Positions 10,579 to 47,425 of a stretch of DNA of 64,000 bases are shown here, piece after piece. Source of the DNA: Spartobacteria bacterium (GTDB taxonomy: Bacteria > Verrucomicrobiota > Verrucomicrobiia > Chthoniobacterales > Chthoniobacteraceae). The position numbers were made by a program, and so were the translations under genes. Location of the stretch: NCBI GenBank assembly GCA_043777315.1, contig JAYVPW010000150.1, positions 1 through 64,000 on the forward strand, given 5' to 3'. The notes under the pieces were generated by a model that worked only from the letters and a program-made list of their open reading frames with translations, ran no database searches and had not been told where the DNA came from. Numbering within the stretch: position 1 is the stretch's first letter; each line of letters opens with the position of its first letter.

Positions 10579-10737
10579 CCGGGTAGCGCACTCGTCCCGA
10601 GTGCTGGTTTCGGCGTCCCGCCGAAACGAACTTTAAAAAAAACGTCCGCCGCTTGGACGTTCTCCAATATCGAACCGCTTCCTAAAGTTCGACGAGGCGG
10701 GACGCCTCGACCAGCGCTCGGGACGAGCGCGCTACCC
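10579..10737. repeat. MITE-like inverted-repeat element, copy a (~159 bp); ~56-nt arms CCGGGTAGCGC(A/G)CTCGTCCCGAG(T/C)GCTGGTTTCGGCGTCCCGCCGAAACGAACTTT with a variable centre
   Basis: copies at 12899-13060 and 47263-47425; sits in the convergent intergenic space between ald and the cyt-c gene. Confidence 0.8.
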
Positions 10738-10775
10738 AAACAGGACACGCGCGCAGCGTATCCCCTGCGCTTCCG

Positions 10776-12839
10776 CTACTTCACCACCGTGCGCAAATAT
10801 TGCCGGATCGCCTCGAACTGCGCGTGCGCGTCGCCGCCGTAGAAATCGGTGAGCGGCGTCTTGCCCTCGTCGTCGGCAAATTTCGGCATCTTCGATTCGG
10901 GATCGATGCGCAGCGGATTCAGCACCCAGCGATGGAAATATCCCGCGCGCAAACGCTCGGTCGAATACGCGAGATTGATCCCCGGTGCCTCGAAGACCGC
11001 GGTCGGCAAACGCTCGCCGACCCCGTGACAGGTCGTGCAATTGAACCCGCCATTTTCGCCGAGCAATTTCTCGCCATTGGCCGCCATCTCTTTGTCCGCG
11101 GGCTTCTCCGGCTCGACGGTCGGTGAAAAACCATGCTCCAGCGACAGCCCCGCGGCGATCCCCGGCGCGACCGTCGCGAAGCCCGGCATCCGCGCGATGA
11201 GCCACGGGCGCGGCTTGTATTTCTGATGCCCGGCGATGAATTCCGCGGCAAACGCCGGCTGCAATTTCTCGCCAAACCAGGTCGCCATCGGAGTCGCCGA
11301 GCCGGCAATCGGCAGACCCTCGCCCTCCGGCGTCGGCGCGCCTGCTTGCAGCGCGGACATTTCGCTCTCCACATCCGACCAAGTGCTCACCGCGCCGTCG
11401 CGCGCGTGGCAGGCGGTGCAGCGCATGTTGCGCATCTGCCGCTCCGCAAATTCGATCGGCGCGTCCTGCTTCAACGAGCCGAATCCCGTCGCGGCAAAAG
11501 CGACGAGCGCATCGCGCTGCGCGGGCTCGAGATTGAAGTCCGGCGCGGCTCCGCGAGCGGTCGCGTCGGCGGCGAGACAGCCCTTCGTCCAGCCGGATTT
11601 CAGCGTCGCCGCGAGCGTCGGCTGCGTCGTCGGCGGCAGACCTGCGTGGCAGTTCAGACATCCGCTCGCGACCAGATTTTGCGCCCCGCGCGCCGCGTCG
11701 CCTTTTGGACCCGCGGCAAATTCACGCTGCGTCCCCGACAGCAAAAACGCGGCGAGGCTTTCCGTCTCCGCGTCGGTCAACCGGAAATTCGGCATGTGCG
11801 TCCACGCGAAATTCTTCGCGGGTTCTTTCAAATAATTGCGCAACGCGGCGGGCTGCCACTTGGCTTTCACATGGTTCAGCGGCGTGCGGTCGTGCTCGTC
11901 CTTGCCGGTGAATTCCGGCGGCGTGTGGCAGGTGATGCAGCCGAGATTTGCGAACAGCGCACCGCCCGCCGGCGCGGGATCGGCGGAGAGCGCGATGTCG
12001 TCGCGCTTGCCCATCGAAACGAGATACGCCGCGAGGTCCGCCGCGCGCGGATCGATCTCGCCCGCCTTCGCCGAGAAAACCCGCGGCATCAGTGCGTGCG
12101 GGCGGATCGAATGCGGATCGCTGATCCAATGCGCAAGCCACGTCTCGTTGAATTTCGCGCCGAGTTCATCGAAGACCGGCGCATCCTGCGCGAGCTCCGG
12201 CATCCCCTCGCCGCGCGGCGGAATCAGCGCCGCATCCGCATGGCACGCCGAGCACCGGAGCTGCGCAAAAAGCAGCCGTCCCTCGCGCACTCGCACGCCT
12301 TCCCGCAGCTCATTCGCGGCGAGCGCGTGCGTGAAAACATTCGGCGGCACCGGCTCCGGCGCGAATTCCTTCGACGACCATTTGAGCTGCAAGCTCGCGT
12401 CCATTTTCCCATCGCTCACGAACTCGACGACGAACGGATTCGCGCCTTTTTTGAGCTGCACCGGCTTGCTCACCGTCTGCGCGGTATTGTCGCCCGCGCC
12501 TTCCAAAATCGGCGCGCCGTTCAGCGTCATTTTCATGCTCCCGCGCACCTCCGCGAGCAGCGTGAATTCGGCCCGCAGCGGCGAGTTCATTTCGCCTTCC
12601 CACTTCGCCGTGAATGCGCCCGCCGGCAGAAACGGCGTCACCGCCTGCCCCGCGGGAACGTAGATGGAGACAAGCCTCGCGGGCCGCGTGTCCGTTTTCC
12701 CGCCCGCGGAAAAAGTGAGCGTGAGCCCCTGCCCGGACTTCGCCGCGAGCTCCGGCAGCGGCGGTGCTTTCACCGGATTTTCCTCGGCGAAAATTGGCAG
12801 CGAGAGCGCCGCGAGAGCGGCGAAAAGGAGGCGCTTCAT
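10776..12839 (-). CDS. multi-haem c-type cytochrome (planctomycete-type, 5 CxxCH motifs), secreted
   Basis: CSACH, CITCH, CLNCH, CTACH, CTTCH; signal peptide MKRLLFAALAALSLPIFA (ATG 12839). Confidence 0.8.
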   Translation of the reverse strand: MKRLLFAALAALSLPIFAEENPVKAPPLPELAAKSGQGLTLTFSAGGKTDTRPARLVSIYVPAGQAVTPFLPAGAFTAKWEGEMNSPLRAEFTLLAEVRGSMKMTLNGAPILEGAGDNTAQTVSKPVQLKKGANPFVVEFVSDGKMDASLQLKWSSKEFAPEPVPPNVFTHALAANELREGVRVREGRLLFAQLRCSACHADAALIPPRGEGMPELAQDAPVFDELGAKFNETWLAHWISDPHSIRPHALMPRVFSAKAGEIDPRAADLAAYLVSMGKRDDIALSADPAPAGGALFANLGCITCHTPPEFTGKDEHDRTPLNHVKAKWQPAALRNYLKEPAKNFAWTHMPNFRLTDAETESLAAFLLSGTQREFAAGPKGDAARGAQNLVASGCLNCHAGLPPTTQPTLAATLKSGWTKGCLAADATARGAAPDFNLEPAQRDALVAFAATGFGSLKQDAPIEFAERQMRNMRCTACHARDGAVSTWSDVESEMSALQAGAPTPEGEGLPIAGSATPMATWFGEKLQPAFAAEFIAGHQKYKPRPWLIARMPGFATVAPGIAAGLSLEHGFSPTVEPEKPADKEMAANGEKLLGENGGFNCTTCHGVGERLPTAVFEAPGINLAYSTERLRAGYFHRWVLNPLRIDPESKMPKFADDEGKTPLTDFYGGDAHAQFEAIRQYLRTVVK

Positions 12840-12898
12840 GCCCGCGATATTTTCGGGAGATGCGGATGGGTGCAAGCTTTCGACCGGTTCGGTCCGAT

Positions 12899-13060
12899 CC
12901 GGGTAGCGCGCTCGTCTCGAGCGCTGGTTTCGGCGTCCCGCCGAAACGAACTTTTCTGACGCCGGCATTGTTCGGACGCGCTCCGATCTCCCCGCGTCTT
13001 AAAAAAAGTGCGTCGCGGCGGGACGCCGCGACCAGCGCTCGAGACGAGCGCGCTACCCGG
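12899..13060. repeat. MITE-like inverted-repeat element, copy b (~162 bp)
   Basis: perfect terminal arms CCGGGTAGCGCGCTCGTCTCGAGCGCTGG...; lies between the dehydrogenase-domain gene and the cyt-c gene. Confidence 0.8.
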
Positions 13061-13134
13061 ATCGGAGTTCCGCGCTCGCGCAAAAAAGGCTGCGCCCTCG
13101 CGGACGCAGCCTTTTTGAATTTACGCGCGTCGGA

Positions 13135-15506
13135 TTAGCGCAGCGCCGAGTAAGTTACGCCCGGCTTTGCGTCCGGCGCGACGACGTTGATCGTCCCCGC
13201 CACATCGGCCGGCACGTCGCCGCCGTCAGCGGATTTGATGTTCATCTTCAACCGGAACTGATCGACCGGCTGGAGGTCCGGCACCTCGATGAAGACGCTC
13301 TTTTTGTCGGCGCTCACCTTGACCGAAGTGATCGTCAAATCGTCCCGGCCTTTCGCCGCGGGGTCGCTGACTTTGTATTCCGCGGAGCCGTAATCCGAGG
13401 TCCAGCGGTAGTTGTGGACCTGCATCGAGTAGTTCTGCACATCGCCCGCCGTCGCAGCATCCACGGGGCTCGTGAAGCCGATGTGGATGCCTTTGTTCGT
13501 GATGTGAATCGTGTTCTGCATGCACACATTTTTGCCCGTGAAACGGACGCGCTGGACGGCGGCATCTTTCGATCCATTCGTCTGCCAGCCGCGCAATCCG
13601 GCGACGTAAAGCTGTCCGTCGAGCGGGCTGAAACGCGCGCGCATCACGCCGCTGTCAAACTTCAGCGGGAACTTCACGACCGCGCCTTGTGCGACCTCGC
13701 CGACGCGCTCCTGCAGCACGTTGAAGAGCGAACTTTTCCCGTACGAAAGGTAGAGCAACTGGCCTTTGAGCGGGCCCCATTTGTCGCTCATTTCCCAGAC
13801 GTGCGCGCCGCACGAATTGTCCCAATCGTAGGGAATCCAGCACAGATGCGCGGGGTGCGAAGTCGGCGGCGGATCGAGATGGGAGAGGTCCGGCACCTCG
13901 ATGAATTCGCCCTGCTTGACGTAATGAATGTAGTCCACCGGAACCCACGTGCCTTGGTTGTCGCCGGTCGTGACTTCGCCATTTGGACCAACGCCCATGC
14001 CGTTCGGCGCGCGGATGCCGGTCGCGAAGACCTCGAATTTCTGGCCGTCTTTCGAGACCTTGAAGACGCAGCCGTTGTGGTCGCTCAACGGGCCCCAACC
14101 GCGACCGCCGGGATTCACCGGGCCGCCTTTGGTGAAGTAGAAATTGCCCTGCGATCAGTCTCCAAACCGAACGTGAATTCGTGGAAGCCGGGTGTGACCT
14201 GAACGTCGTTGTTGAAGTTCTCGTAAAGGTCGGCCTCGCCGTCGGCGTTGAGGTCGTGGAGCCGCGTGATCTGATCGCGGCCGAGGACGTAAACGACGTC
14301 ATCGACGATCTTCAAACCGAGCGCCTGAAACAGGCCGGTTGCGTAGCGTTTCCACTGCAAATTTTCGAGCTTCGCATCGATGCCCGAGACGATCCAAACG
14401 TCGCCGCTCCAGGTGCTGACGGCCATGCGCCCGTCCTTGAAAAAATCGACCCCGGCGATGCGGAACCACGACTTCGCCGCGTTCTCAAACGGCACGGTGA
14501 GCGTGTCCACAACGTACGGGCTTTTGTCGTCCGTGCCGAGCGTGCCGGCGGTTTTCGCGACCTCCGGCCAATGCGGCGCGCCGCCTTTCGTGAACTGTTT
14601 TAAGTCGGCGGGTTTCGCGAGGGCATTGATCGCCGCAGTGACTTTCGGAGCATCCGGCAGCGCGCATTTTCCAAACGCGACTTTGAACGCCTGACCGGCC
14701 GCGAAGGCTGGCAGATGCAGCGTCACGCGCGCACCGCTCGCCACGAACTTCGCGCCCGCCGGAGCGCCGACGAGCCCGACGACGAGCCGATTGTCTGGGT
14801 TGACGATTTCGTTGCTGACGAATGCGAGACCACCCTCGACGACCGCCGTCGTTCCTTCCACTCCGTCCGCAATCAGGAGATTCGAGGCCGCTCCGGGAGC
14901 GACGACATTAAACGTCCGCGTGAGCAAATCGATCTCGCCGGATTTCTCGAGCGCCGGCATTTCCAGCACCGACGCCGTGCCGACCGTGTAGGCCAGCACC
15001 ACATTGTCGCCGCTCAAATAGAGGCCTTTATATTTCGCCCACTCTTTCGGCAGCGGACCGAAAGGAACTTTTGCCGCGCCCGGCCCGGTCGGCAATTTAC
15101 GCGGATCGGTGAGGTCTTCGCCCTTGCTCCAGCCCGGCCCCGGATTGGTCTCAAAATAAATATTCGCGCCCTCTTTCGGACTCGGATTCGGTCCATGTCC
15201 GCCATCGAAGGTGACGCCTTTCAGTTTGATCCAGCCACCGGTCCAGCCGCCCGCCATCCGCAGCAGCTCGGTGTCAAAAAGCAGCGTCCCCTCCGCATTC
15301 TGCGCCTCGGTTTTGCCGAGCTTGATCGCGATGCCTTTGTTCGTGCAGGAGCCTTTTCCGTCGAGCGTGCTCATGCCTTCGGGATTCAAATAGGTCGCCG
15401 AAAGAAAGCGGCCGTAGTCCATATCCTCCCACTTGTTCGCCGCGACAGCGGCGGCTGCGGTGAGCGTGTAAATGGCGGTGAGCAGAAGCGGAATTCGTCG
15501 GGTCAT
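13135..15506 (-). pseudogene. secreted membrane-bound-dehydrogenase-domain (TIGR02604-like) beta-propeller protein split into two ORFs (14115..15506 and 13135..14118) by an apparent 1-nt frameshift near 14118-14157
   Basis: both halves are paralogous to successive parts of the dehydrogenase domain of the 36484..40464 protein; frame 1 reads ...GLETDRRAISTSPKAAR*, frame 2 reads SQGNFYFTKGGPVNPGGRGW... across the junction; signal peptide MTRRIPLLLTAIYTLTAAAAVAA. Confidence 0.5.
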
Positions 15507-15567
15507 GCGTTTCGCCGGGCGGAATTGAGTCAAATAAAACCGGGGCGTCCGGGTTCTCCCCGGCAAC

Positions 15568-16257
15568 ATGAAATTCAACACGCTCGTTGCAGTGACGTTG
15601 TTCCCCCTCGGAACGATTGCTGTGCATGCTGACGTGATCCGGCTCGCGGATGGCCGCGTGATCGATGGGCAGATTGCCGAGCCCGCGGAGGTCACGATCA
15701 AGACCGCGACGGGCGCGCAGAAAGTCGCGTTCGGCCTCCTGTCGGCGGACTTGCAGAAAATTTATTGGCCGAAAATGGCGGAGACCCGCGCGGTCGCCGA
15801 GGCCAAGGCGCTTGCCGATGCCAAAGTCGTCGCCCCGGTTTCCGACGACGATCTCACCGCGCTCGCGAACGAGGTGAACCTCGAGACCTGGCAGCAGGTC
15901 GCGGCGATCGGCTCCTTCCGCGACAAACCGGAGAAGCGCGGGACCGGCGGGCTCGTCGTGACGAAAGCGTTCAACGCGCTCGATGAAAACTGGGTGACGG
16001 TTTATTCGCCAAAAGATCCCGTCGGCGAGGCGTGGAACTGGAACGACCAGATGACCCGCGCCAAGGCCATGCAGGAGCGTTCGCCGCAGTTCATGCAGCG
16101 CCGCTGGCTCGAGCTTTTCATCAAGGCCGGCGCCGCGGTCGAGTCGCGCGATTCCAACGAATTCGCGCTGGCCGTCCGAGAAATGAAGCGAAATCCGATC
16201 GCCAGCACGGGCACTTCGGCGGGCGATTCTGGCCGCAATTTTTTCCCAGCAAAATAG
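15568..16257 (+). CDS. hypothetical secreted protein (signal peptide)
   Basis: MKFNTLVAVTLFPLGTIAVHA signal; no recognised domain. Confidence 0.5.
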   Translation: MKFNTLVAVTLFPLGTIAVHADVIRLADGRVIDGQIAEPAEVTIKTATGAQKVAFGLLSADLQKIYWPKMAETRAVAEAKALADAKVVAPVSDDDLTALANEVNLETWQQVAAIGSFRDKPEKRGTGGLVVTKAFNALDENWVTVYSPKDPVGEAWNWNDQMTRAKAMQERSPQFMQRRWLELFIKAGAAVESRDSNEFALAVREMKRNPIASTGTSAGDSGRNFFPAK

Positions 16258-16304
16258 CCCGACCCGGGTTATCTACGGCGCGATTCTCAACTCCCCACCA
16301 CCTC

Positions 16305-16859: not shown

Positions 16860-16862
16860 CAA

Positions 16863-20128: not shown

Positions 20129-20691
20129 AAGGGGACGGGGAAAGCGGAGAACGTCGAACGTCGAACGTCGAACGTCGAACGTCGAACGAGGAGGAAGCGG
20201 CGAATGGAACGCTGCAAGGCGCTTCGAGGGTTTGGGACTTGGAGGAACGATTGCTCGATTACTCCGTTCGGATCATTCGCCTCGCCGATGCGCTTTTTCC
20301 GTCGCGCGCTGGGAACCATGTCGCGGGTCAATTGCTTCGCTCCGGCACTTCTCCCCTGCCAAATCACGGCGAAGCGGAGTCAGCCGAATCGCCTGCCGAT
20401 TTCCTCCACAAACTCCGCATTTGCCTGAAAGAACTTCGCGAATCAAAGCGCTGGCTGCGTCTCATTCATCGCGCTCCCCTGATCGACAGACCGGAAAAAG
20501 TCGAGCCGCTCCTCGCTGAAACCGAAGAGCTCATTCGCATTTTCGTCGCCAGCATCCGCACCGTCGAGAGCCGCCAGTTCAGTCCCCGCGTCCGTGAGGA
20601 CGCCTCCGATTCCGATACTTCGACGTTCGACGTTCGACGTTCGACGTTCGACGTTCTCCCCTCCCAGCCCCCACCCGAGGAAACCCCATGA
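20125..20691 (+). CDS. four-helix-bundle protein (23S rRNA IVS protein family), second copy; start uncertain (ATG 20125 overlaps the DUF58 stop; the conserved core begins ~20230); stop overlaps the next ATG (ATGA)
   Basis: family motifs [41 protein letters not shown]; both termini are translated from the heptamer arrays ([12 protein letters not shown] / [12 protein letters not shown]). Confidence 0.6.
20131..20667. repeat. heptamer-armed hairpin element E1: left arm GGGG..GGAGAACGTC(GAACGTC)4 at 20131-20187, right arm (GACGTTC)5TCCCCTCCC at 20618-20667; the loop carries a four-helix-bundle gene
   Basis: arms are reverse complements with a G-rich/C-rich clamp; same family as E2-E4. Confidence 0.8.
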
Positions 20692-22841
20692 ATTTCCTCA
20701 ACGCCGCCCTCCTCGCCGGCACCCTCGCCCTCGCGATCCCGATCATCATTCACCTCTTCCACAAGAGCCGTTTCGAGGTGGTGAAATGGGGCGCGATGCA
20801 CCTGCTCGAGTCGGTCATCCGCACCAATCAAAAGCGCGTCCGCATCGAGCAGCTCATCCTCATGGCGATCCGCGCCGCGATCCCGCTGCTGCTCGCACTC
20901 GCCATGGCGCGGCCCATCTGGCAGGGCGCGCAGAAGCTCCTCGGCGAGGCGAAAACCTCCACGATCCTGCTGCTCGACAACAGCTACTCGATGGAAGCCG
21001 GTCGCACCGGCACCTCGAATTTTTCCCTCGCCCGCGACGAAGCCACGCGCGTCGTCAACGACCTGAAACGCGGCTCCGACGTGCAGGTCGTTTTGATGGG
21101 AGAAGGGGGCTCCTCCCTGCTCGACCAGCCGACCTACGACACCGGACGCATCACGCAGGGGCTCACGAAATTGAGCGCGGGTTACGGCACCGCAACCGTC
21201 CCGGCGTCGCTCGATTTTGCGGCCGGCATCTTCGAGAAAATGCACGAGTCGGCGCGGAATCTCGTCGTCCTCACTGACTTCCAGCGCGTCAGTTTCGAGG
21301 CCACGGAAGACGCCGCGCTCGGGCAGGCGCTCGACCGGCTGAAAAAGCAGACGATCGCGCCGCACGTCACATTTTTCGATGTCGGGCAGGAGGTGAAAGA
21401 CAACGTCGCGCTCGAGTCGCTCGACTTCTCGCGCCTCATGGTCGGCGTCGGACAGAAGATCCAAATCCGCGCGAACCTCCGCAATTTCGGCGACGCCAAT
21501 TACCCCGACCTGCGCGTCTATTTCAAAGCCGACGGGAAGGAAAAATCGGTTTCCCAGATCGCACTTTCGCCGCACGAAAAGCGGCAGGTTCTTTTCACGC
21601 ACGCGTTCGATACGCCCGGCTCGCACGTCGTCGAAGTCTTCGCCGACGCGGACGCGCTCAAGGCCGACAACAGCTACCTCGCGAGCATTCCCGTGCGCGA
21701 CAAAGTCCCGGTGTTGCTGATCAACGGCGACCCGAGCGGCGAGCCGATGAAAGGCGAAACCGACTTCGCCGAAATCGCGCTGGCTCCGAACAGCGCGGCC
21801 CGCGTCGAACTCGCCGACCTGCTCGCGACGAAGGTCGTGCGGGCCGAAGAACTGGACCCGAAACGCCTCTCCGAGTCGGCAGTCGTGATCTTGGCCAATG
21901 TCCGCAAACTCAATGACGATCAGCTTCGCGGGCTCGAGGAGTTCGTGAAAAACGGCGGCGGCCTCCTCGTTTTCAGCGGCAACCGCGTCGATCCGGCGTG
22001 GTACAATTCCGCCTTTTTCAAAGACGCGAAGGGCCTGCTCCCGCTGATCCTCGGCCCGCTCGCCGGCGACCTGAAAGAGAGTTCGCCGTCCGTCTCCGTC
22101 GTCTCGCAGCGTTTCGACAATCCCGCGCTCGAACTCTTCAACGATTCACGCAACGGCAACCTCTCCGACTCCGCGATCAAGCTCTGGTTCAAGCTCAAGG
22201 AGCCCGGTGCCTCCGCCGTGACGACGCTCGCCCGACTCGAAAACGGCGACCCATTTCTCGTCGAAAAACCGTTCGGCGAAGGCCGCGTGATCCAGTGCTC
22301 GACGGCACTCGACGCCGACTGGAGCAACCTGCCGATGCGCCCGACCTATTTGCCGCTCCTCCAGCGCCTCTCGGTCTATCTCGCCTCCACGATTTATCCG
22401 TCGCGAAATCTCGACGTCGGCAAGCCGCTCATCGCGCTCCTGCCCGCCGCGGATGCGGGAAAAAAAGCGACGATCACGAACCCCGACGGCGCGGCGGTCG
22501 AGGTGCTGATCGTGAAGAAAGGCGAGCGCGGCGTGGTCGAGTTTGGCAAGACCCAGCGGCCCGGACTTTACACCCTCACGGCGGCCGGCGGGCAGCCGGT
22601 GCATTACGTCGTCAACGCGTCGCGCCGCGAGTCCGACCTCCAGCGATTGAGCGATGCGGAGATCGCCGATTTCGCGAAACAGCATGGCGTCGCGGTCGTC
22701 CACAACGGCGCGGAATACAAGGCGCTGGATCAGTCGCGGCGGTTCGGGACAGAGCTGTGGAAACCAATCCTGTGGGCGCTGCTCGGAATGGTTTTTGTGG
22801 AGGTGGTGGTGGAGCAGAAATTTGCGGGGAGGCGGAAATGA
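20688..22841 (+). CDS. BatA-like membrane protein (N-terminal double-TM domain + vWA-like region + C-terminal TM), 717 aa
   Basis: N-terminus [24 protein letters not shown]...LILMAIRAAIPLLLALAM matches the BatA N-terminal double-transmembrane domain; LLLDNSYSM vWA MIDAS-like. Confidence 0.7.
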   Translation: MNFLNAALLAGTLALAIPIIIHLFHKSRFEVVKWGAMHLLESVIRTNQKRVRIEQLILMAIRAAIPLLLALAMARPIWQGAQKLLGEAKTSTILLLDNSYSMEAGRTGTSNFSLARDEATRVVNDLKRGSDVQVVLMGEGGSSLLDQPTYDTGRITQGLTKLSAGYGTATVPASLDFAAGIFEKMHESARNLVVLTDFQRVSFEATEDAALGQALDRLKKQTIAPHVTFFDVGQEVKDNVALESLDFSRLMVGVGQKIQIRANLRNFGDANYPDLRVYFKADGKEKSVSQIALSPHEKRQVLFTHAFDTPGSHVVEVFADADALKADNSYLASIPVRDKVPVLLINGDPSGEPMKGETDFAEIALAPNSAARVELADLLATKVVRAEELDPKRLSESAVVILANVRKLNDDQLRGLEEFVKNGGGLLVFSGNRVDPAWYNSAFFKDAKGLLPLILGPLAGDLKESSPSVSVVSQRFDNPALELFNDSRNGNLSDSAIKLWFKLKEPGASAVTTLARLENGDPFLVEKPFGEGRVIQCSTALDADWSNLPMRPTYLPLLQRLSVYLASTIYPSRNLDVGKPLIALLPAADAGKKATITNPDGAAVEVLIVKKGERGVVEFGKTQRPGLYTLTAAGGQPVHYVVNASRRESDLQRLSDAEIADFAKQHGVAVVHNGAEYKALDQSRRFGTELWKPILWALLGMVFVEVVVEQKFAGRRK

Positions 22842-23015
22842 GGGGGGAGGCGGAGAACGTCGAACGTCGAACGTCGAACGTCGAACGTCGAAGTAGGAGC
22901 GCGCGGCGTGGCGTTTCCGTGCATCGCGCGGCGCAGTTGAACTCACGACATTTTCGGAATTCGCCACGCCGGAATCCGCCACTTCGACGTTCGACGTTCG
23001 ACGTTCGACGTTCGA
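22842..23015. repeat. heptamer-armed hairpin element E2 (arms (GAACGTC)4/(GACGTTC)4, ~88-bp loop)
   Basis: GAGGGGGGAGGCGGAGAACGTC(GAACGTC)3GAAG ... CTTC(GACGTTC)3GACGTTTTCCCCTCCCC. Confidence 0.85.
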
Positions 23016-23049
23016 CGTTTTCCCCTCCCCGCCACCCGGTTTTGTCCCG

Positions 23050-25812: not shown

Positions 25813-25847
25813 TGATGAATGCGCTGCTGATTTTCGCGGGGTTCGCG

Positions 25848-25963
25848 GAGGGGGCAAACGTCGAACGTCGAACGTCGAACGTCGAACGTCGAAGTGGGGA
25901 AACTGAAGAGACGCTGCGCGTCGGACTCTGCGTTCGACGTTCGACGTTCGACGTTCAGCGTTC
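25848..25963. repeat. heptamer-armed hairpin element E3 (~35-bp loop)
   Basis: GAGGGGGCAAACGTC(GAACGTC)3GAAG ... (GACGTTC)-type arm ...TTTGCCCCTC. Confidence 0.85.
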
Positions 25964-26002
25964 GACGTTTGCCCCTCTTCCGTCCGCAACCCGACTCCCG
26001 CC

Positions 26003-31530: not shown

Positions 31531-31665
31531 GGGGGAGGGGAGGGGAGAACGTCGAACGTCGAACGTCGAACGTCGAACGTCGAAGTGTCGGATTCCGAAA
31601 GGCGCGATGCTTTTAGCAGCATCTTTTTTGACTTCGACGTTCGACGTTCGACGTTCGGCGTTCGA
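31531..31665. repeat. heptamer-armed hairpin element E4 (~46-bp loop containing its own small hairpin GATGCTTTTAGCAGCATC); preceded by (AGCCACGGAC)x3 at 31501-31530
   Basis: GGGGGAGGGGAGGGGAGAACGTC(GAACGTC)3GAAG ... CTTC(GACGTTC)2GACGTTCGGCGTTCGACGTTTTC. Confidence 0.85.
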
Positions 31666-31710
31666 CGTTTTCTGAAAAATGCTCCGACGTTTGCGGCGGC
31701 GCTGCTGTCG

Positions 31711-33059: not shown

Positions 33060-33320
33060 GTCACCTCCGTTCCCTCTCCCCCAACGCCAAACCGCCAGCC
33101 ATCCGCCACTGTTCTCCATCCCTCAGACCCTAGCCTCCGGCCGTCTCGCTCCGTGCTCCGCTTCCCGACGGAAGACGGCCAGCCGTTGCCCTCCGTTCTT
33201 CGTCTCCCGAGGTCGATCGCCATCCGTGCAGCGCCGTTCTCCACTTCCCGGCGTCGAGCCGCCAGCCATCCGCCTCCGTGCTCCACTTCCCAGCGGCAAA
33301 CCGCCAGCCGTGCGCCTGCC
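33060..33320. repeat. degenerate tandem repeat (~4 units of ~55-65 bp, core CCGCCAGCCATCCGCCnCCGTGCTCCACTTCCC)
   Basis: repeated CCGCCAGCC / GT(G/T)CTCCACTTCCC blocks; region 32730-33690 has no convincing ORF. Confidence 0.5.
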
Positions 33321-33689
33321 CGGCCCGCCCGCGGGTTCAGAGGGAGAGCGAGCTCGGCGACGGGCCAAGCACTTCAGCTCCCCATCGGCATCCTGACCTT
33401 GGCGTCGCGCCTCTCTGTTCGACTTCCATGAGCAAAGGAAGCCACTACCGAAGTCACGCGGCTTCCCCTGGGCTGGGTGGCGGGGCCTTCGGGCGAAGGC
33501 AGACGAAGCTGCCGGGTCGGTGAGGGCGAGCGGCGGGAGCGTGGGCGCGGGGTGACGGGGAGGAGCGGGGCGGTGAGTTTTTCGTAGAGGCGAAAGAGGT
33601 GTTCGACCCGCGCGCGGTCGCTGCTGCCGAGGCGCTGGAAAAGCTCCCGGTCGTCCCCGGCGTAGGCCTTCTCGACCGCGCGATCCAGC

Positions 33690-36287
33690 GTCGCATGCGC
33701 CTTTTGCGAGCTCCGCCGGCATGGAGAGCGGGTCGTAGAGATCGGCGAGCGTGCGCATCCCCCTCGGCGGCAGGTGCGGCTCCCGCGCCGCCAGCACCGC
33801 CCGAGCGGCGTTCTCCACGGCGGCCCGCTGGGCAGGCGTGGCGGAGTCGGGCCAGGGGAAGTTGTTGTAAACGAGCCCGGCGGAATAGCGGTAGTCGGAC
33901 TTCAACCGCCCGGCGAGTTGGCGCATCCATGCCATGTGCATGGAGGAAGTGAGGACGCCGAAATGCCACGCGGTAGCGCCCGGGGAGACAAAGACGAGAT
34001 TGTTCGAAATCACTTCAGCGCGCTGCAACGCCATCGGAATGTAACTGCGTCCTTCGGAAGAGACGCCCGGGACAAGAAGATAGGACTCATTTGGCTGTCG
34101 ATCTTCCCCAAACCGGGTGGGCGTGGTGGCTAGTCGGGTCGTAGTCAGACGATTACTGGCAAGCCGGTGTTGCCGCACTCTTTCGATGCGCTCCATGACT
34201 TTGGGCATCAGCCGAAGCACGCCGGGCGCGACATCCTTCAACCACAAGCACCATCGGTCGATGCCGTTGATGAATTCTTCCGATCCGAGAATTGGACGAA
34301 TGAACGGCGCGGCTCCGGGCTCCTCTGCAAGCAATGTGATGCGCTCCGAGGTAGTCAGCATCAAATGCCCGCCATCGTTCGGCATCGAGCCGAAGATCAA
34401 TGGGGGCACGTCGCAGAGGGGAGTAGTCCGTTTGGTGATGGTGACGTCTAGGCCTTCCGCAAGATACGGCGAGATGTTCGCCGCGACGGTGACGGTCGGC
34501 TCGGCGTGGTTTCCTTCGTAGTCGAAGATTTATTTGTTCGCGCCGCTCCCGACTCCAAAGCCGATGATGACGACATGGACGTGGGCTTTTCCGCGGGACT
34601 CGCTGGCCCACGGGAAGGTGCGGTGGGCGAAATGGATCTTGATGCCGTAGCGCTGGAAGAGGTCGCCCGAGAGGATGCCGACTTGCTCGCCTTGGCTGAT
34701 GGAGTTCGTGGAGACGAAGGCGACGGATGGAGTCCCGGGTAGGGTGGGCGTCCCGCCCGCCGGCCGAGGCGTCCCGCCTGGGCGCACTTCCCGGGTGCCG
34801 GAAGATCGTTCCGGCGAGACGCCGGAACCGGCGGGCGGGACGCCCACCCTACCCGGGACGGCGGTGCTCAGGTATTGGGCCGCGCGCCGATACCAGCAGG
34901 TGACGAAGTCGAGGACGCCAGCGCCTTTCACGCCCTCCCAGACGTGCGCCATATCGGCCTTTTGCTCGGCGTTCTGGTAGTGCTTGCCCACGAAGGGCGG
35001 GTTGCCGAGGACGTAGCTGCACTGGGCGGCGGGGAGGACGGTGTGCCAGTCGAGGCGGAGGGCGTTGGCGTGCCGAATGTCGGCGGTGCGGGTGAGGGGG
35101 AGGCCTTCGATGGGCGCGCCGAGGAGGGCGCTGGCGGCCTGGTTCATCTGGTGTTCCATGAGCCACATGGCGACTTCGGCGATGCGGACGGGCTATTCAT
35201 CGATCTCGATGCCGTGAAACTGGGCGACGCTGACGCCGAGGAAGAGGGAGCGGACGACCTTCATGATGTCGCGCTCGCTGGTGTACTGGGCACCCTGCTG
35301 GCGGCGGGCGCGGTCCTCCATGATGCCCTGGAAGAGGGAGCCGAAGACGGCGGGGGAGATGCGGGCCCACTGGAAGTCGCAGCAGTAGAGGAGGGAGTCG
35401 CGCATTTTCGCGTCGAAGACGGGCGTGCGGAGGCGCTCGGCGAAGAGCTTGCCATTGACGTAGGGGAAGGCGGCGATCTCGTCTTCGATGCCGCGCTGGC
35501 GCTCGGTCTCGCGGGTGTCGAGGATTTCAAAGAGGAAATTGAGCTGCTGGCCGAGGTCGGAGCCATCGGGCCGGGTGCGGGTGCGGATGAAGGCGGTGAA
35601 GGCTTCGGGGCCGAAGATGCCGTTGTCCTCGGCGAAGAGGCGGACGAGGAGGCGGACGAGGAGGCGCTCGATCTCGTGGCCGCCGCGCGGGTCATGGGCG
35701 CTGCCAAAGCCGCCGGTTTTCAGCGCATCGTGCAGGTCGCACATGCGGGCGCAGGCTTTTTCGTTGGCCTCGTCCTCGGGCTGGTAGCGGACGCGGGTCT
35801 GGCCGAGCATGAAGGCGAAGTGCCGGACGTGCTGGGGGAATTCGGCGAGGGTGAAGTGGTGTTTTTCGATCTGCCGCCCGGCAAAGAGGGGGAGGTCGAG
35901 CTGGTCGTCGGGCTCGAGGTCGTAGAGGACGAAGCGGGCGAAGTCGGAGACGAGGACGTAGCGGGGGAGGTCGTGGTGGAGGCCTGCGCGGGCGAGGTCT
36001 GCGATGTAGGTGAAGGCCTGGGTCTCGGCGAGGGCGAGGTCTTCGCCGAAGCTCTTGTGCTCGACGAGGAGGCGTCCTTTCCAAAGGAGATCGATGGCGG
36101 AGACGTGGCCTTTGAGGTTGGTGACGTTGTGCTCGAAGGCGGCGAGGGCGGAGCGGCGGAGGCCGAAGACGTCGAAGAAGGCGTTGTAGAAGGTCTGCTT
36201 TTCGGCGCGCTCGGAGCGGGCGCCGGTGTGCTCGCGGCTGAAGCGGATGGCGCGGTGCTGGATTTCGCTCCAGGAGAGATGGGGCAT
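33690..36287 (-). pseudogene. MmeI-like type IIG/IIL restriction-modification enzyme gene (nuclease/helical N-domain, N6-adenine MTase NPPF, TRD) broken by two in-frame stops (TAG at 35193-35195, TAA at 34530-34532) and degenerate beyond ~33690
   Basis: fragments 35193..36287, 34530..35168 and 33690..34532 are collinear and in one reading frame; motifs LSWSEIQ...EKQTFYNAFFDVFG, LGNPPFVGK, AFVSTNSISQGEQV, HFGVLTSSMHMAWMRQLAGRLKSDYRYSAGLVYNNFPWP, LADLYDPLSMPAEL. Confidence 0.65.
34732..34859. repeat. 128-bp perfect palindrome (32-bp arms GTCCCGGGTAGGGTGGGCGTCCCGCCCGCCGG / rc, 64-bp centre) inserted in frame (141 nt, ~47 aa) inside the MTase domain of the MmeI-like gene
   Basis: the insertion sits exactly between conserved ...AAQYL and AFVSTNSI... 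blocks; terminal CCCGGGTAG and internal GGCGTCCCGCC resemble the MITE-like family. Confidence 0.8.
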
Positions 36288-40464: not shown

Positions 40465-40834
40465 CGCCGTCGCGCACGCCTTTCGGTGCGCCACTTCATC
40501 GTTCCCAAGCTCCCGCTGGTTTCACGATTTTCATGTGGGAAAAGCGGCCTTTACGCGAGCAGCCTTGTTGCTGGCGAGACTTATCGGCCGAAGACACTCA
40601 ACTGAAACGACAAGAGATCCTCTGCCGCCGAAAAGCATCGCCCTTCCGGCGCGGGTCTCAAGGAACCACTGATCTAACCAACATGCCCGTTTCGATGGGG
40701 AGCGTACGGGTCCTCGCGTGTCGTGGCTGGTTCCCTCGCCGGGCACTCTTCCGAGGCGCGGATCATCGGCGAGGGCGCCGATGACAGCACGCGAAGGCGC
40801 GTGCGCTACCCGGCCCGATTAAATCAGTGGTTCC

Positions 40835-43222
40835 TTAATAGATCAGCGTCAGCGTCAGAAAGGCGTTGTAGAGGAAGCTATCCACCTTGCCTTCCTGGTC
40901 CTGAGGGCCGAGGCCGGGGACGCGTTCGGTGTTGCGACGGTAGATGTCGCGGTAGCCGCCGCCGGGGACGAAGAAGCCGACGCCGGCGGAGAGGATGATG
41001 TTATCGGTGAGCAAGGGCCGATATTTGAAGCCGAGGCTGGTGTCGAGGCCGAGGTCGTTGCGGGCGCGGTTGGTTTGCAGGGCGACTTCGATCGGCTTGG
41101 TCTCGGCGAGCCAGATGTAGTTCACGTTGACGAAGGCTTTGAGCTTCGGAGTGACGTCGATGTCCGAACCGACACCGACGATCATGACACCGGGGTTGAC
41201 GAAGTTCGACTGACCTTCGCTCTTGCTCGTGCGCAGGTCTGGGACCAGGGAGTCGCGTTGCTTGAGACCTACCGAAGTGCCGCCGAGATTCGGGCCTTCG
41301 TGGACATACCAACTGAAAGGTCCGCCGATGAAGAACGGGTTGTCTTGAATGCTATCGAAGCCTGTGGCGGTGCGGTTGTTTGGGTTGCCATCGCCGCTGG
41401 CGTAGAAGCCGGAGAGCTTGAGGCGATACCAGTCGCGATCGTAACTCAGTTCCAGCGCGGCCATCTGCGCGTTGATCGTGACCTTGCGCCCGGCCAGGCT
41501 GTTGAAGTTGTCTTCGCCCGTCACCTCGTAAAAAGCGTGGTTGATGTTGAAGCGTCCGATGTGTCCATCACCGGTCCATCCGAAGTAGAAGGCCTTGACT
41601 TCATGCCCGCGCAAGCCGCCGTCGCGCCCGGTGAAGTCACCATTGTCTTTGACGGTGCCGAAAGGTGACGGGCGGGTGAGGAAGCCGTTCTTGTCGTAGT
41701 GTGTCCCGCCGTCGTCTAGGTTCGCGTGGAAGCTGAACTGCGCGGTGTAGCCCTTCCAAATGGCATCCTGCCGGAAGACGTTCGCGATGATGACGTCCTG
41801 ATGCCGTGACTGGAAAGTGTTAAGGTCGGAGTAGGTGTCTTTCTCGCGCTGGTTGAAGTAGGCGAGGTTGTATTGGATCCGGTTGTTATCGAGGTTGCCG
41901 AAGATGCGGGCACCTAGATTGGTGTCGGCAAAGATGAAGCCGCGAAAATCACTGACAAAGGGCTGGATGCCCCAGCGGGAGGAGATGAAGTCGTAGTTGT
42001 CGGATAGGTCTCCGATGTGGATCTCGGCAAAGGCCTCCTGCAAGGCGAAGAAGTCGCGGTGCCGGTTGGTGTAGCGCGTATTCTCCAAGTCCTTGCGCCC
42101 GTTCTTTCCGCTGCTGTGACGATCATCCTTCTTCGCCTGACTCCTATCCCGCACCTCATTCGTCTGCGGATCCACTTCCACGAGCCTTTTGGCATTGCCC
42201 GTCGGGGTGAGCTGCGGCGCGATGAAGTTGAAGGCGTCGCCGGGGTTGACGGTTTTGGTGAAGTTGGCGGGGAAGCCGCCCTTCGGATTCACATTGTCAC
42301 CGTCAGTCGGGATGGACTGCAGCTTGTCGGTGCTTTGCGCGGCCTTGTTCTCGTTGAACTCGGTCCCGCGCGGGTCTGGATCGATGTTGTTGTTCTCGCG
42401 GACGCGGGTCCAGTTCTGGTTATAGACACCGAGGACTCGGATCAGCCAGTGGACGGGCTTGAAGGCGGTCTCGCCTTGAAAGATGTCGATGGCCAACGAT
42501 GTGTCATTCGAGAAAAGCATCTGCTGGCTGCGCCCAAAGAAGTCGAAGCTGTTCGGCTGCGCGGTGCTGACGCCGCTGGGAGTGGGAAGCTTCCGGTATT
42601 CATAGAGGGAAAAGTTCTTTGCCGTGAGGTTGAGAAAAATGTCCTGCCCGATGATCGGCACGTCACCTTTCAAGGTGCTCTGCCGATACGGATGCCAGAG
42701 CGCGGGCGTCTCGTACTGGTAAGGTGTCTCGTGCGTCGGGTCGCGGTAGCGCGTCCAGTGCGGAAAGTTGAGGAACCAGCGGTTCGGCACCCCTTTGGAA
42801 TGCGGCAGCAGGCCGAGACCCTCGCGGCCCATCGGATACTCGGGATACTCCCAGACTTTGTTGATCGGTGCCTGGCCGTGGACGCCGCGGCGCGGGAGCC
42901 TGAGCCCGCCGGGAGCCGTGGACTCGGCGCCGTAGTTGGGCCGGAGTTGCACTTGATCGGGGAAAAGGAAGTCGCTCGGCTCCGGGCTGCGCTCGGGCGT
43001 GAGTCCGTGGGTCGGGCCGTCGCCGCCACCGGGGTCGGGGTTGAATTGCAGCGGCGATCGCGGAGGGGCGGAATCCTCGGTGCCGGGCTCGTGATGGCCG
43101 TAAAACGGGCGGAGAAAAGGCGAACCGCTTTTGAACTTCGGCCCCGCCTCCTCGGCGGGCGAAGGAGTGGCGCAAAGCAGGGAGACGATGCCGGATGCGA
43201 GCCAGCGCGAAGCCGGATACAT
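40835..43222 (-). CDS. putative outer-membrane beta-barrel-like protein, 795 aa (signal peptide MYPASRWLASGIVSLLCATPSPA)
   Basis: beta-strand-like alternating aromatic/polar pattern throughout, C-terminal ...FLTLTLIY; no named family recognised. Confidence 0.45.
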   Translation of the reverse strand: MYPASRWLASGIVSLLCATPSPAEEAGPKFKSGSPFLRPFYGHHEPGTEDSAPPRSPLQFNPDPGGGDGPTHGLTPERSPEPSDFLFPDQVQLRPNYGAESTAPGGLRLPRRGVHGQAPINKVWEYPEYPMGREGLGLLPHSKGVPNRWFLNFPHWTRYRDPTHETPYQYETPALWHPYRQSTLKGDVPIIGQDIFLNLTAKNFSLYEYRKLPTPSGVSTAQPNSFDFFGRSQQMLFSNDTSLAIDIFQGETAFKPVHWLIRVLGVYNQNWTRVRENNNIDPDPRGTEFNENKAAQSTDKLQSIPTDGDNVNPKGGFPANFTKTVNPGDAFNFIAPQLTPTGNAKRLVEVDPQTNEVRDRSQAKKDDRHSSGKNGRKDLENTRYTNRHRDFFALQEAFAEIHIGDLSDNYDFISSRWGIQPFVSDFRGFIFADTNLGARIFGNLDNNRIQYNLAYFNQREKDTYSDLNTFQSRHQDVIIANVFRQDAIWKGYTAQFSFHANLDDGGTHYDKNGFLTRPSPFGTVKDNGDFTGRDGGLRGHEVKAFYFGWTGDGHIGRFNINHAFYEVTGEDNFNSLAGRKVTINAQMAALELSYDRDWYRLKLSGFYASGDGNPNNRTATGFDSIQDNPFFIGGPFSWYVHEGPNLGGTSVGLKQRDSLVPDLRTSKSEGQSNFVNPGVMIVGVGSDIDVTPKLKAFVNVNYIWLAETKPIEVALQTNRARNDLGLDTSLGFKYRPLLTDNIILSAGVGFFVPGGGYRDIYRRNTERVPGLGPQDQEGKVDSFLYNAFLTLTLIY

Positions 43223-43309
43223 CGGGCGGGAATGCGGAGAGGGCACCGTTTTTCGCACGGCGGTTGATTGGCGGAAAGCTCGCGGAGTCGCAATGTAATT
43301 GTCGCGGCA

Positions 43310-45178: not shown

Positions 45179-45547
45179 TTATTTGGCCGCCGCGCGATAT
45201 TCGCGCAACGCCGCGCCGAGCCAGTCGGCGCTCGGGATGGTCTTTCCGTCTGGCATTTCGACGAGGTAGGGCTTGCCGCTCAGGTGGCTCTGTGAGCCGG
45301 CGAGCCGGATGAAATCCTCGGGCGTTTTCACCTCTTTTTTTACGTAATCGTACTTCCGCTGCATGAGCTTCGCCGCTTCCGCCGCGTCGTGCTCGCTGCC
45401 GTTGCGAATGAAGATCAGCCTCGAGTCGGCGACATGTTTGATCAGGTAGGCGACGGTCTCGTCGGTCGTCGGTGCAGCCTCCGCGCGCAGCGCAAAACAT
45501 CCGATGAATAGGCCGGGCAACAGTGCGAGAAACGAGCGGGTTTTCAT
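45179..45547 (-). CDS. small secreted hypothetical protein (~122 aa)
   Basis: signal peptide MKTRSFLALLPGLFIGCFALRAEA. Confidence 0.45.
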   Translation of the reverse strand: MKTRSFLALLPGLFIGCFALRAEAAPTTDETVAYLIKHVADSRLIFIRNGSEHDAAEAAKLMQRKYDYVKKEVKTPEDFIRLAGSQSHLSGKPYLVEMPDGKTIPSADWLGAALREYRAAAK

Positions 45548-45656
45548 CGCGGGAAAATCGTGACCGACGACCCGCGCGGTTGCTTTCCCCTTGTTGTTCA
45601 CGGGGCCGATTTTACGATCCGCCGGGATTCCACCTCAACTGATTCCCGAGCCGATT

Positions 45657-46490
45657 ATGATTCTCAAACACGCCATTCCCTTCGCTTTCGCCGCGTCCGT
45701 TTTGCTGGCCGGCTGCGCCTCGAAATCGGTTTTGCGCGGCCCGATCACGGATGCGCCGCCGGTGCGGAGCGCGTCGTTTCGGCAGGCGATGGGGAGCGTG
45801 ATCGGCACGCCCTTTGTCCCCGGAAATCGCATCACCACGCTGATCAACGGATCGCAAATTTTTCCCGCGATGTTGAGCGCGATTCACTCCGCGAAAAAAA
45901 CGGTCACCTTCGAGACTTTCGTCTTCGAAAAGGGCGAGGTTCCGCAGCGATTCGCGGAGGCGCTCGCCGAGCGGGCGCGGGCCGGGGTGAAGGTCCACGT
46001 CATCCTCGACGCGCACGGCGCGAGCAAGTCGCGCGCATACAATTCGCTCTTCAAATCCGCTGGCGTGCAGGTCGAGCGCTACCACCACATCTTTTATCCC
46101 GACGTCCGCCGGTACAACAACCGCACGCACCGCAAGCTCCTCGTGATCGACCAAAAAGCCGTCCGGCGCGCGTCCCGCAAACGCTGGAGCAAGCTGCTCG
46201 ATGCCGGGATCGAGATCTACGAATTCGAGCCAACGATGATTCACAGCAAGCTTCTCATCGCCGACGGGCTCTTCGTTTCCATCGGTTCCGCGAATTTCGA
46301 CAACCGCTCGCTGCTGCTGAACGACGAGGCAAATTTCGACGTGCTCGACGCCGGATTCGCCGCGCAGCAGGCGCGGCTTTTCGTGCAGGATCGGGCGCGA
46401 TCGGAGAAGGCGACCGCTGAGAAAGTGAAGGGAAAAGTCGCCGAGAAACCGGCGCAAGCCGTGCAGACGCCGGTCGAATCGCAGCTCTGA
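45657..46490 (+). CDS. phospholipase D/cardiolipin-synthase-family lipoprotein with two HKD motifs but an apparent ~130-aa internal deletion between them
   Basis: lipobox LLAGCAS; HKD1 THRKLLVIDQ, HKD2 HSKLLIADG...GSANFDNRS separated by only ~35 aa. Confidence 0.55.
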   Translation: MILKHAIPFAFAASVLLAGCASKSVLRGPITDAPPVRSASFRQAMGSVIGTPFVPGNRITTLINGSQIFPAMLSAIHSAKKTVTFETFVFEKGEVPQRFAEALAERARAGVKVHVILDAHGASKSRAYNSLFKSAGVQVERYHHIFYPDVRRYNNRTHRKLLVIDQKAVRRASRKRWSKLLDAGIEIYEFEPTMIHSKLLIADGLFVSIGSANFDNRSLLLNDEANFDVLDAGFAAQQARLFVQDRARSEKATAEKVKGKVAEKPAQAVQTPVESQL

Positions 46491-46495
46491 TTTTC

Positions 46496-47245
46496 ATGCG
46501 CATCGTCCTTAAATTTGGCTCCGGGATTCTCGCGAATGCCGAGGGGAACAGCCTCGATCGGGCGCAGTTCGAGCGGCTGAGCGCGGAGGTCGCGGAGCTC
46601 GTGCGCGACGGGCACGAATGCGTGATCGTCTCGAGCGGCGCGGTCGCCGCCGGATTGATGGCGCTCGGGCTGAAAGATCGGCCCGAAGAGCTCGCCGCGC
46701 GGCAGGCGTGCGCCGCGGTCGGGCAGTCGAAGTTGATGCAGCTTTACGCGACGATGTTCGAGAGCCACGGGCTGAACGTCGCGCAGCTCCTCCTCACCCA
46801 CGGCGACCTCGACAGCCGCACCCGTTACGCGAACGCGCGGAACACGCTCGAGCATTTGCTCACGCGAAAATCGGTCGTGCCGATCATCAACGAGAACGAC
46901 TCGGTGGCCGTGGAGGAGCTAAAATTCGGCGACAACGACCGGCTCTCCGCCGAGGTCGCAATCCTCGCCCGCGCGGACCTGCTCATCCTCCTCACCAGCG
47001 TCGATGGATTGCTCGACGGCAGCGGCGCGACCGTCGGCGTGGTCGAGGACATCGATGCGGTTTCCTCGCTCGCGCGGCAGGAAAAAGGACAGTTCTCTGT
47101 CGGCGGAATGATCTCGAAATTGCAGGCCGTGAAGCTCGCCGTGGAGGCGGGGATTTTGACCCAAATCGCGCACGGCCGAAAGGCGCGGCAGATCGGCGAC
47201 ATCGTCGCCGGCAGGCAGGTCGGGACGAAATTCCTGCCGCGCTGA
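46496..47245 (+). CDS. proB: glutamate 5-kinase (no PUA domain)
   Basis: MRIVLKFGSG..., VVPIINENDSVAVEE, FGDNDRLSA. Confidence 0.85.
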   Translation: MRIVLKFGSGILANAEGNSLDRAQFERLSAEVAELVRDGHECVIVSSGAVAAGLMALGLKDRPEELAARQACAAVGQSKLMQLYATMFESHGLNVAQLLLTHGDLDSRTRYANARNTLEHLLTRKSVVPIINENDSVAVEELKFGDNDRLSAEVAILARADLLILLTSVDGLLDGSGATVGVVEDIDAVSSLARQEKGQFSVGGMISKLQAVKLAVEAGILTQIAHGRKARQIGDIVAGRQVGTKFLPR

Positions 47246-47262
47246 GGACGCGCTTGTGCAGT

Positions 47263-47425
47263 CCGGGTAGCGCATTCGTCCCGAGTGCTGGTTTCGGCGT
47301 CTCGCCGAAACGGACTTTCCTGACGCGTCAGCCTCCACGGACGCGTCTTGAGAATCAGACGTTTTTCAAAGTCCGTCGCGGCGGGACGCCGCGACCAGCA
47401 CTCGGGACGAGTGCGCTACCGGGAA
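47263..47425. repeat. MITE-like inverted-repeat element, copy c (~163 bp)
   Basis: arms CCGGGTAGCGCATTCGTCCCGAGTGCTGGTTTCGGCGTCTCGCCGAAACGGACTTT / rc. Confidence 0.8.

Follow-up and report, generated by a model that had tools for sequence, protein, structure and literature searches.

In a 64,000-nucleotide stretch of a Spartobacteria bacterium contig (JAYVPW010000150.1, positions 1 to 64,000; hereafter the window), we find a family of small palindromic elements that are very probably REPINs, that is, tail-to-tail doublets of a GTAG-type repetitive extragenic palindromic (REP) module specific to Chthoniobacterales/Verrucomicrobiota and served by a REP-associated tyrosine transposase (RAYT). 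The initial annotation of this DNA had called the elements MITE-like, after miniature inverted-repeat transposable elements. As the description of a dispersed, small, non-autonomous palindromic family the term holds, though no further than to say that they are mobile and non-autonomous; classic MITEs they are not, with no duplication and a RAYT rather than a DDE enzyme as partner, so that both enzyme and mechanism differ. It is the combination of GTAG hairpin arms, lack of target duplication and a RAYT between the same arms that places the class with REP/REPIN and not with MITEs.

Arm structure and covariation

All three of the ~160-bp copies recorded in the initial annotation are present, at coordinates within 1-3 nt of those given and with a length of ~163 bp each. 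The total of three was too low, and a short fourth copy and a decayed fifth are added below. Bit scores, one for each arm, are those of R1, a covariance model built solely from arms of other genomes, without window arms.

10578-10740 (+): REPIN copy a, 79.5 and 73.8 bits, from arm pattern matches; left arm 10578-10634 (+), 49-nt centre 10635-10683, right arm 10684-10740 (-)
12898-13061 (+): REPIN copy b, 80.7 and 77.4 bits, from the repeat survey; arms 12898-12954 (+) and 13005-13061 (-), 50-nt centre
47262-47424 (+): REPIN copy c, 75.6 and 71.3 bits, from the repeat survey; arms 47262-47318 (+) and 47368-47424 (-), 49-nt centre
34734-34857 (-): REPIN copy d, short form with a 10-nt centre, 76.7 and 64.8 bits, from the repeat survey
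~40694-40814 (no strand given): decayed REPIN copy e; right arm 40758-40814 (-), 31.1 bits, E 1e-4

Copies a, b and c score 71-81 bits (E 4e-13 to 5e-15), and the left arm of copy e (GGGGAGCGTACGGGTCCTCGCGTGTCGTGG...) is discernible by eye alone. The model is specific: it matches 9 times in the 64 kb of the window, while 417 kb of unrelated contigs from soil metagenomes yield no match. Dinucleotide shuffles of the window, which has a G+C content of 64%, gave 0 matches to the arm pattern.

Each arm is 57 nt long and reads, on the GGGTAG strand, (N-Y-C)GGGTAG, N6, CGTCYCG, N6, GG, N6, CGTCYCG, N6, CGAACTTT. A GTAG head is thus followed by two 8-bp hairpins with a common CG-TCY-CG apex (a T-C-Y triloop) and then by the conserved CGAACTTT tail. 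All 8 of the 8 good window arms have (G)GGTAG or CGGTAG and then a hairpin of 8 bp with a triloop. Within one window element the two arms are complementary at 46-52 of 57 positions; compared between copies a, b and c, arms are identical at 48-54 of 57 (84-95%), while the centres of 49-50 nt are only ~55-59% alignable. Individual copies vary in their stems: the left arm of copy a has an inner hairpin of TTTCGG type, and the outer stem of copy d, GGTGGG/CCCGCC, differs from that of the other copies.

The family extends well beyond the window. Many more copies had been expected from the three first seen, and an arm-pattern scan of one genome per species gave, as a lower bound, >113 loci, nearly all in Chthoniobacterales, with hosts that include Udaeobacter and Chthoniobacter plus a few Limisphaerales and Verrucomicrobiaceae. 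Density is 5 copies in the 64-kb window, and relatives give several matches per metagenome-assembled genome (MAG). From the fetched loci together with the window we parsed 76 complete doublets, 106-169 bp long, in which 10-80 nt separate the arms. These doublets refine the earlier picture of ~56-nt inverted arms, which is right for the outer ~27 nt and wrong for the rest. Family-wide, the outer hairpins are mutual inverted copies (89% Watson-Crick from arm to arm), whereas the inner hairpins pair locally, at 92.5% and 82.5% Watson-Crick, and only at 33% from arm to arm. As single-stranded DNA (ssDNA), a typical short element is predicted to form a long outer stem with two local hairpins at its tip, and the predicted folds are very stable (z = -11 to -14). 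In copy b, where the inner stems happen to be alike, the predicted fold is one long hairpin (-89.8 kcal/mol, z = -13.9), and the palindrome reaches outward to 12893-13066.

Covariation was measured on 70 arms, all from other genomes and none from the window. Stem cells pair in 92.9% of cases, compared with 72.5% after shuffling, and in 12 of the 16 stem pairs both partners change. Covariation scores 0.582, compared with 0.191 for shuffled arms; 0 of 500 shuffles reach the observed score, and control stems slid along the arm pair at 55% or less. Outer hairpin H1 has 11.2% G.T and 0% A.C mismatches; outer hairpin H4, read on the strand of H1, is its mirror image, with 0.9% G.T and 9.2% A.C. Such mirrored asymmetry indicates that each arm is constrained on its own GTAG-bearing strand, which fits recognition as ssDNA and does not fit a single transcript. 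Orientation relative to transcription in tandem contexts is 11 versus 12, and in Rfam 15 no copy matched at the gathering threshold, nor any at E <= 1 over 10400-13300. These observations point to elements that act at the DNA level rather than as RNA genes. The structured RNA family that the initial annotation had set against its own proposal is, on the same three grounds, not supported.

The probable RAYT partner and its place in RecG

An autonomous partner with matching termini, also raised in the initial annotation, exists in related genomes, as a RAYT and not as a DDE transposase. In three loci retrieved by the arm pattern (L073, L025 and L093), two arms enclose an open reading frame (ORF) in a unit of ~617 bp. 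HUH (DHVH) and Y-I-x-R-N-P motifs are found in the ORF, which clears the Pfam Y1_Tnp cutoff (24.3 against 23 bits) and matches NCBIfam REP_Tyr_transpos with E 1e-21 over 139-142 of 146 profile positions. The NCBIfam transpos_IS200 match is weak (15-21 bits versus a cutoff of 55), and E. coli TnpA-REP (4ER8), whose HUH and Tyr align with those of the ORF, is the sole match in the PDB. A protein search gave 280 clusters of homologues, mostly 212-217 aa long, many of them named RayT by JGI. Loci retrieved independently through the RAYT (L114-L118) are again bracketed by full arms, at R1 scores of 48-76 bits, and in four of them the RAYT is squeezed between two genes for T2SSE-type ATPases, where stop codons overlap start codons.

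L114, 4001-4639: RAYT ORF with translated arms on a Udaeobacter-like contig
L116, L117 and L118, 4001-4651: the same on further Udaeobacter-like contigs (212-216 aa across the four)

Across the order, the arm-RAYT-arm unit therefore occupies no fewer than two distinct genomic locations. A Y1-like homologue in L005 (43% identity) was set aside, as family arms do not flank it. We also considered the element centres as remnants of RAYT-internal deletions; just the arm-adjacent linker of 11-16 nt matches, and such an origin was not demonstrated.

The target-site duplications that a classic MITE would have led one to expect do not flank the copies. Direct repeats are absent at 53 of 73 elements and at most 4 nt long at the rest, with 5 boundary shifts tried, and flank complementarity mostly ends after 0-3 nt, the exceptions being L003 (17 nt) and copy b (8 nt). 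Empty sites were compared as well, and no clear duplication was seen there. One such comparison concerns copy c. It adjoins proB (46496-47245 +) on its downstream side and is followed by a small membrane-protein ORF; in two relatives (L119 and L121, with flanking genes at 80-83% nucleotide identity) the orthologous proB region is without window positions 47247-47431. Copy c is thus an insertion polymorphism, a gain or loss at an orthologous site. In both relatives the small ORF directly follows proB, with an overlap (GTGA) in L119 (3247-3260), and proB and this 119-aa membrane-protein ORF are probably translationally coupled there. In the window, at 47245-47490, copy c splits proB from the small ORF, so the latter must start at a different codon. 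The window proB is no more than 92% identical to any catalogued protein, with best named matches in Chthoniobacteraceae/Chthoniobacter.

Past their right ends, copies b and c have 13-15 nt in common, GGA[T/A]CGGAGTTCC (13061-13075 and 47424-47438). GGAGTTCC also follows the recG-borne RAYT unit of L073 (~3831-3840), and similar flank sequence occurs at empty sites, as GGAATTCC in L123 and GAGTCCGG in L119. The shared right flank may reflect a target preference or a flank that is carried along.

We suggest that the elements are non-autonomous and would be recognised as ssDNA hairpins, and that the RAYT, an HUH/Y1 tyrosine transposase, would cut and rejoin them. In related genomes its gene lies between the same two arms, an arrangement known as a 'REPtron'. 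By analogy with IS200/IS605 TnpA and E. coli TnpA-REP, the RAYT may bind hairpins with a GTAG head in ssDNA, such as that of replication forks, and may catalyse excision and insertion that leave no target duplication.

In the first three loci, L073, L025 and L093, the unit lies in frame in recG, and the REP arms are translated as linkers. It occupies a loop of RecG helicase domain 1 that is flanked by the helicase motifs 'APTQILAEQH' and 'IGTHALLY'.

L073, 1967-4828 (+): recG with RAYT insert
L025, 618-3371 (+): recG with RAYT insert
L093, 119-2905 (-): recG with RAYT insert
L123, 1001-3112: recG site without the unit, clean and empty
L122, 1001-3145: recG site without the unit, keeping a decayed arm at the insert position

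Among the best 120 RecG homologue clusters (59-100% identity), 110 have the insert and are 840-965 aa long; the HUH motif is intact in 100 of these and Y..NP in 91. The insert is absent from the other 10. Many of the 110 carry the automated JGI label 'RecG-like helicase/REP element-mobilizing transposase RayT', and a literature search found no paper on a RAYT embedded in RecG. We tentatively raise the possibility that in this clade the RAYT is no longer a free-standing gene and has become a conserved domain within RecG, the fork-remodelling helicase. A chimera that is both produced and active would tie REPIN processing physically to a helicase working at stalled forks and branched DNA, places that expose single-stranded hairpins. 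Such a fusion would represent a novel kind of transposase domestication and might account for the presence of this phylum's REPs in replication and repair genes. With a functional RecG-embedded RAYT, whether RAYTs and REPINs benefit the host would become a directly testable question.

Known systems and alternative readings

REP/REPIN-RAYT systems are defined by a GTAG head with a palindrome, inverted doublets, placement at 3' ends, the lack of duplication and a flanked RAYT (PMC3116915, PMC3337134, PMC3479197). Our family resembles those of Pseudomonas, E. coli and Stenotrophomonas (Nunvar 2010; Bertels & Rainey 2011, PMC3116915; Ton-Hoang/Messing 2012, PMC3479197) in its GTAG head beside a GC-rich imperfect palindrome, in inverted doublets that form a long hairpin, in copies that among the parsed elements are mostly extragenic at 3' ends, without target duplication, and in an HUH + Tyr RAYT gene flanked by the same repeats. 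It differs from them in having two tandem hairpins per arm with an identical CG-TCY-CG apex and four hairpins per element, in the unrelated stems of the inner hairpins of the two arms, in its spacer of 10-80 nt and in its Verrucomicrobiota host. Its RAYT, unlike those of the three genera, has an ORF that takes in the translated arms and lies within other genes or operons.

Within the phylum, Di Nocera et al. (2013, PMC3733652) described GTAG REPs of the verrucomicrobium Opitutus terrae, among them a GTAG-19 family, with tail-to-tail dimers of variable spacer length and many REPs inside genes, notably uvrA, dnaE2, helicases and genes for an N-6 DNA methylase and a DNA ligase. The preference for 3' ends and the intragenic copies in replication and repair genes are the same in our family, although the order is Chthoniobacterales here and Opitutales there. 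The GTAG-19 peptides GTGVPPV and HGRDARAT back-translate to GTAG-CACGGG-CGTCCCG-CCCGTG, which would have the head and apex of our outer hairpin with a different stem, a comparison made through the peptides and not directly with the consensus. The family appears related to the O. terrae GTAG-19 REPs. New with respect to that paper are the two-hairpin arm with its ACTTT tail, the spread in Chthoniobacterales and the location of the RAYT; in its text and supplements 'recG' is absent and no compound two-hairpin arm with an ACTTT tail is described.

Two further systems invite comparison. IS200/IS605 elements (TnpA Y1; IS608, ISDra2) are alike in transposase fold and motifs, in subterminal hairpins on one strand, in the lack of target duplication and in a strand-specific structural constraint. 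Their ends, however, are not inverted copies and have no GTAG head, and they are multi-copy autonomous elements, whereas our ends are inverted copies with a GTAG head and the transposase fits the RAYT model and IS200 models only weakly. The bacterial interspersed mosaic elements (BIMEs) of E. coli, mosaics of Y and Z REPs with linker motifs, share the alternation of REPs and linkers, the location at operon 3' ends and possible attenuator and gyrase/IHF roles, but they are different in sequence, and the unit in our family is a fixed pair of compound arms rather than a Y/Z REP array.

As REPINs, these elements bring a class investigated mostly in Proteobacteria into Chthoniobacterales, an order whose members include Candidatus Udaeobacter, among the most abundant lineages in soil. 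The family supplies a clean covariance model for annotating repeats, its compound two-hairpin arm limits what a RAYT must recognise, and it offers examples of repeats tolerated in frame within essential replication and repair proteins. The repeats explain odd low-complexity inserts in predicted proteins, such as 'GSARVSRAGDGVPPSRT' and 'RRDAATSTRDACAT', and may add to MAG fragmentation.

Were the elements classic MITEs, they would be internally deleted derivatives of DDE-transposase insertion sequences, moved in double-stranded form by way of their terminal inverted repeats, with target-site duplications as a product. They do share with MITEs such as Correia elements, RUP and ERIC/IRU-type repeats that they are small, non-coding and dispersed, have inverted-repeat termini and depend on a transposase in trans. 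The size of 110-165 bp is right, the terminal repeats of window copies are complementary at 46-52 of 57 positions, and dispersed copies come with insertion polymorphism. Yet the two hallmarks of MITEs, target-site duplications and DDE-type partners, were not found: the 73 elements have no such duplications, and the sole transposase found between the termini is an HUH/Y1 RAYT, other partners in full genomes not having been exhaustively searched. Inner arm halves that are 33% complementary to each other and locally palindromic with compensatory changes speak against terminal inverted repeats of that kind, and a GTAG head beside a hairpin is a REP signature (PMC3733652). We regard this origin as highly improbable. 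A family of structured non-coding RNA genes or cis-regulatory RNA motifs, in which the four hairpins make up a functional RNA fold, would account for the strong hairpin covariation, the very stable predicted folding (z = -11 to -14) and the position of most copies, intergenic and close to gene ends. It is nevertheless very unlikely, given the lack of Rfam matches at the gathering threshold or at E <= 1 and the random orientation to flanking transcription (11:12). Tolerance of G.T is mirrored on opposite strands of the two arms, so no one transcript gets four good hairpins; moreover, copies lie in frame within protein-coding genes, arms flank a transposase gene, and a copy is present or absent at an orthologous site.

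The elements might instead serve the host first, as bidirectional terminators or attenuators, as stabilisers of mRNA 3' ends or as nucleoid and gyrase sites of the sort proposed for E. coli BIMEs, with mobility secondary or extinct. Of the 52 intergenic copies that could be classified, 45 have tandem or convergent neighbours, arms are conserved while centres drift, which suggests selection on the arms, and copies a and b contain terminator-like features. In copy b, both inner hairpins with their ACTTTT tail were scored terminator-like on both strands by a terminator scan. In copy a the feature is in the centre and was read by eye.

10635-10665 (-): hairpin and T-run in the centre of copy a, GGAGAACGTCC-AAGCGGC-GGACGTT-TTTTTT

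This hairpin, followed by T8, lies downstream of a cytochrome c gene in the correct orientation for terminating it and looks terminator-like by eye; the terminator scan gave no terminator call for it. A role of this kind is compatible with the REPIN reading, and an inner hairpin with ACTTT(T) could, as a possible side effect, attenuate transcription that enters from either side. As the primary explanation we think it unlikely, for it leaves unexplained the bracketing of a RAYT, the in-frame copies in DnaE, UvrA and RecG, the 7 copies between divergent genes and the splitting of a translationally coupled gene pair by copy c.

Several points weigh against our identification of the elements as RAYT-served REPINs. 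The invariance of GGGTAG and the apex among the collected loci is partly by construction, since the retrieval pattern specified both, and many of the G.T variants recur and are possibly not independent events. The RAYT scores 76-77 bits with its NCBIfam model, slightly below the curated equivalog cutoff of 80. When the window was searched by tblastn for RAYT or recG, only translated arms were found, and the cognate RAYT of the source genome is inferred from relatives; that a RAYT mobilises REPINs in this clade rests on analogy. Lastly, the centres of copies a-c are poorly conserved and have no RAYT homology beyond the arm-adjacent linker, while the arms are 84-95% identical. Centre drift beside such arm identity makes simple copying of whole REPINs insufficient as the only explanation, and either selection or conversion preserves the arms of old elements, or arms can be renewed separately from the centres.

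Genomic context and other repeats

Context was classified with a simple codon-usage ORF caller. The 76 elements comprise 30 between tandem, 15 between convergent and 7 between divergent genes, 12 that are intragenic and in frame (about 16%) and 12 that are unclassifiable; the intergenic ones are thus mostly at gene 3' ends. Copies a, b and c are intergenic, as the initial annotation had it for all copies, whereas copy d lies inside a fragmented MmeI-type gene. The hosts of the 12 intragenic copies are DnaE (four), UvrA, HrpB, MmeI-type proteins (two, including copy d), MetH, a class-I tRNA synthetase, AcrB and one protein without a Pfam match. Two of the DnaE copies, in L029 and L042, have a common flank and are therefore probably orthologous. 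The intragenic REPINs outside the window with coordinates are:

L015, 3678-3805
L029, 2978-3087
L042, 6233-6342
L041, 4185-4297
L102, 7864-7991
L084, 4364-4502
L072, 6140-6287
L055, 515-633
L063, 6987-7122
L096, 5925-6071

Copy d is translated in frame within the methyltransferase part of its host, a type IIL restriction-modification gene of the MmeI family that is split into at least three ORFs. Pfam matches to MmeI_Mtase, TRD (target recognition domain) and N fall on three separate ORFs, and there is an in-frame stop near 34530; the gene is probably a pseudogene.

33123-36287 (-): MmeI-family gene, whole extent
35193-36287 (-): N and helicase spacer fragment
34530-35168 (-): methyltransferase fragment
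33123-34409 (-): TRD and C fragment

Copy a is flanked by convergent 3' ends, those of an Ald/PNT-family gene (9363-10547 +) and of the multihaem cytochrome c gene (10776-12839 -). Copy b lies between two minus-strand genes, with the 5' end of the cytochrome c gene (12839) on one side and the 3' end of the 13135-14118 gene on the other. Orthologues of the cytochrome c gene beside these two copies were sought in metagenomes and not found, and a scan with the Ald/PNT protein gave 80 loci, none syntenic and none with arms, which serves as a negative control only.

Copy e sits between convergent genes, nested in a perfect 14-nt inverted repeat (40660-40673 / 40824-40837). The L003 element is likewise nested in an inverted repeat, of 17 nt (2975-2994 / 3104-3123), which is itself REP-head-like (GGGGAGCGCAGGC). 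Both elements may be insertions into the apex of older hairpins.

The loop of copy a, GGACGTTCTCC, had been noted for its resemblance to a heptamer element, and the likeness is real. A 10-mer, GGAGAACGTC (minus strand), is common to GGACGTTCTCC and to the starts of four heptamer arrays; it occurs 5 times in the window, with 0.27 expected, and in the centre of copy a it lies at 10656-10665 on the minus strand. The arrays form four inverted pairs, (AACGTCG)5 facing (CGACGTT)5, separated by 6 to ~400 nt.

20134-20202 / 20608-20672: heptamer-array pair
22840-22908 / 22972-23036: heptamer-array pair
25834-25916 / 25922-25986: heptamer-array pair
31532-31600 / 31622-31686: heptamer-array pair

With arrays that begin with GGAGAACGTC and a second array that terminates in CGACGTTTTC, these pairs look like long-stem terminators.

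A separate repeat family of ~70 nt (GGGGGAAATAGTTAGAGGTCCTTCGACTGCGCCCGCAAAGCCGGGCTTCGCTCAGGATGAC) has four copies in the window that are 85-95% alike.

944-1022 (+): ~70-nt repeat
3205-3283 (+): ~70-nt repeat
5391-5461 (+): ~70-nt repeat
49004-49117 (-): ~70-nt repeat

Elsewhere in the window, positions 4302-4347 (+) match the Rfam Acido-Lenti-1 sRNA at 37.3 bits, which barely reaches the gathering score of 37, and positions 29840-31300 (+) contain a long, internally repetitive Ala/Gln/Lys-rich coding stretch (GCGGCG/CAGGCG repeats) in a large ORF.

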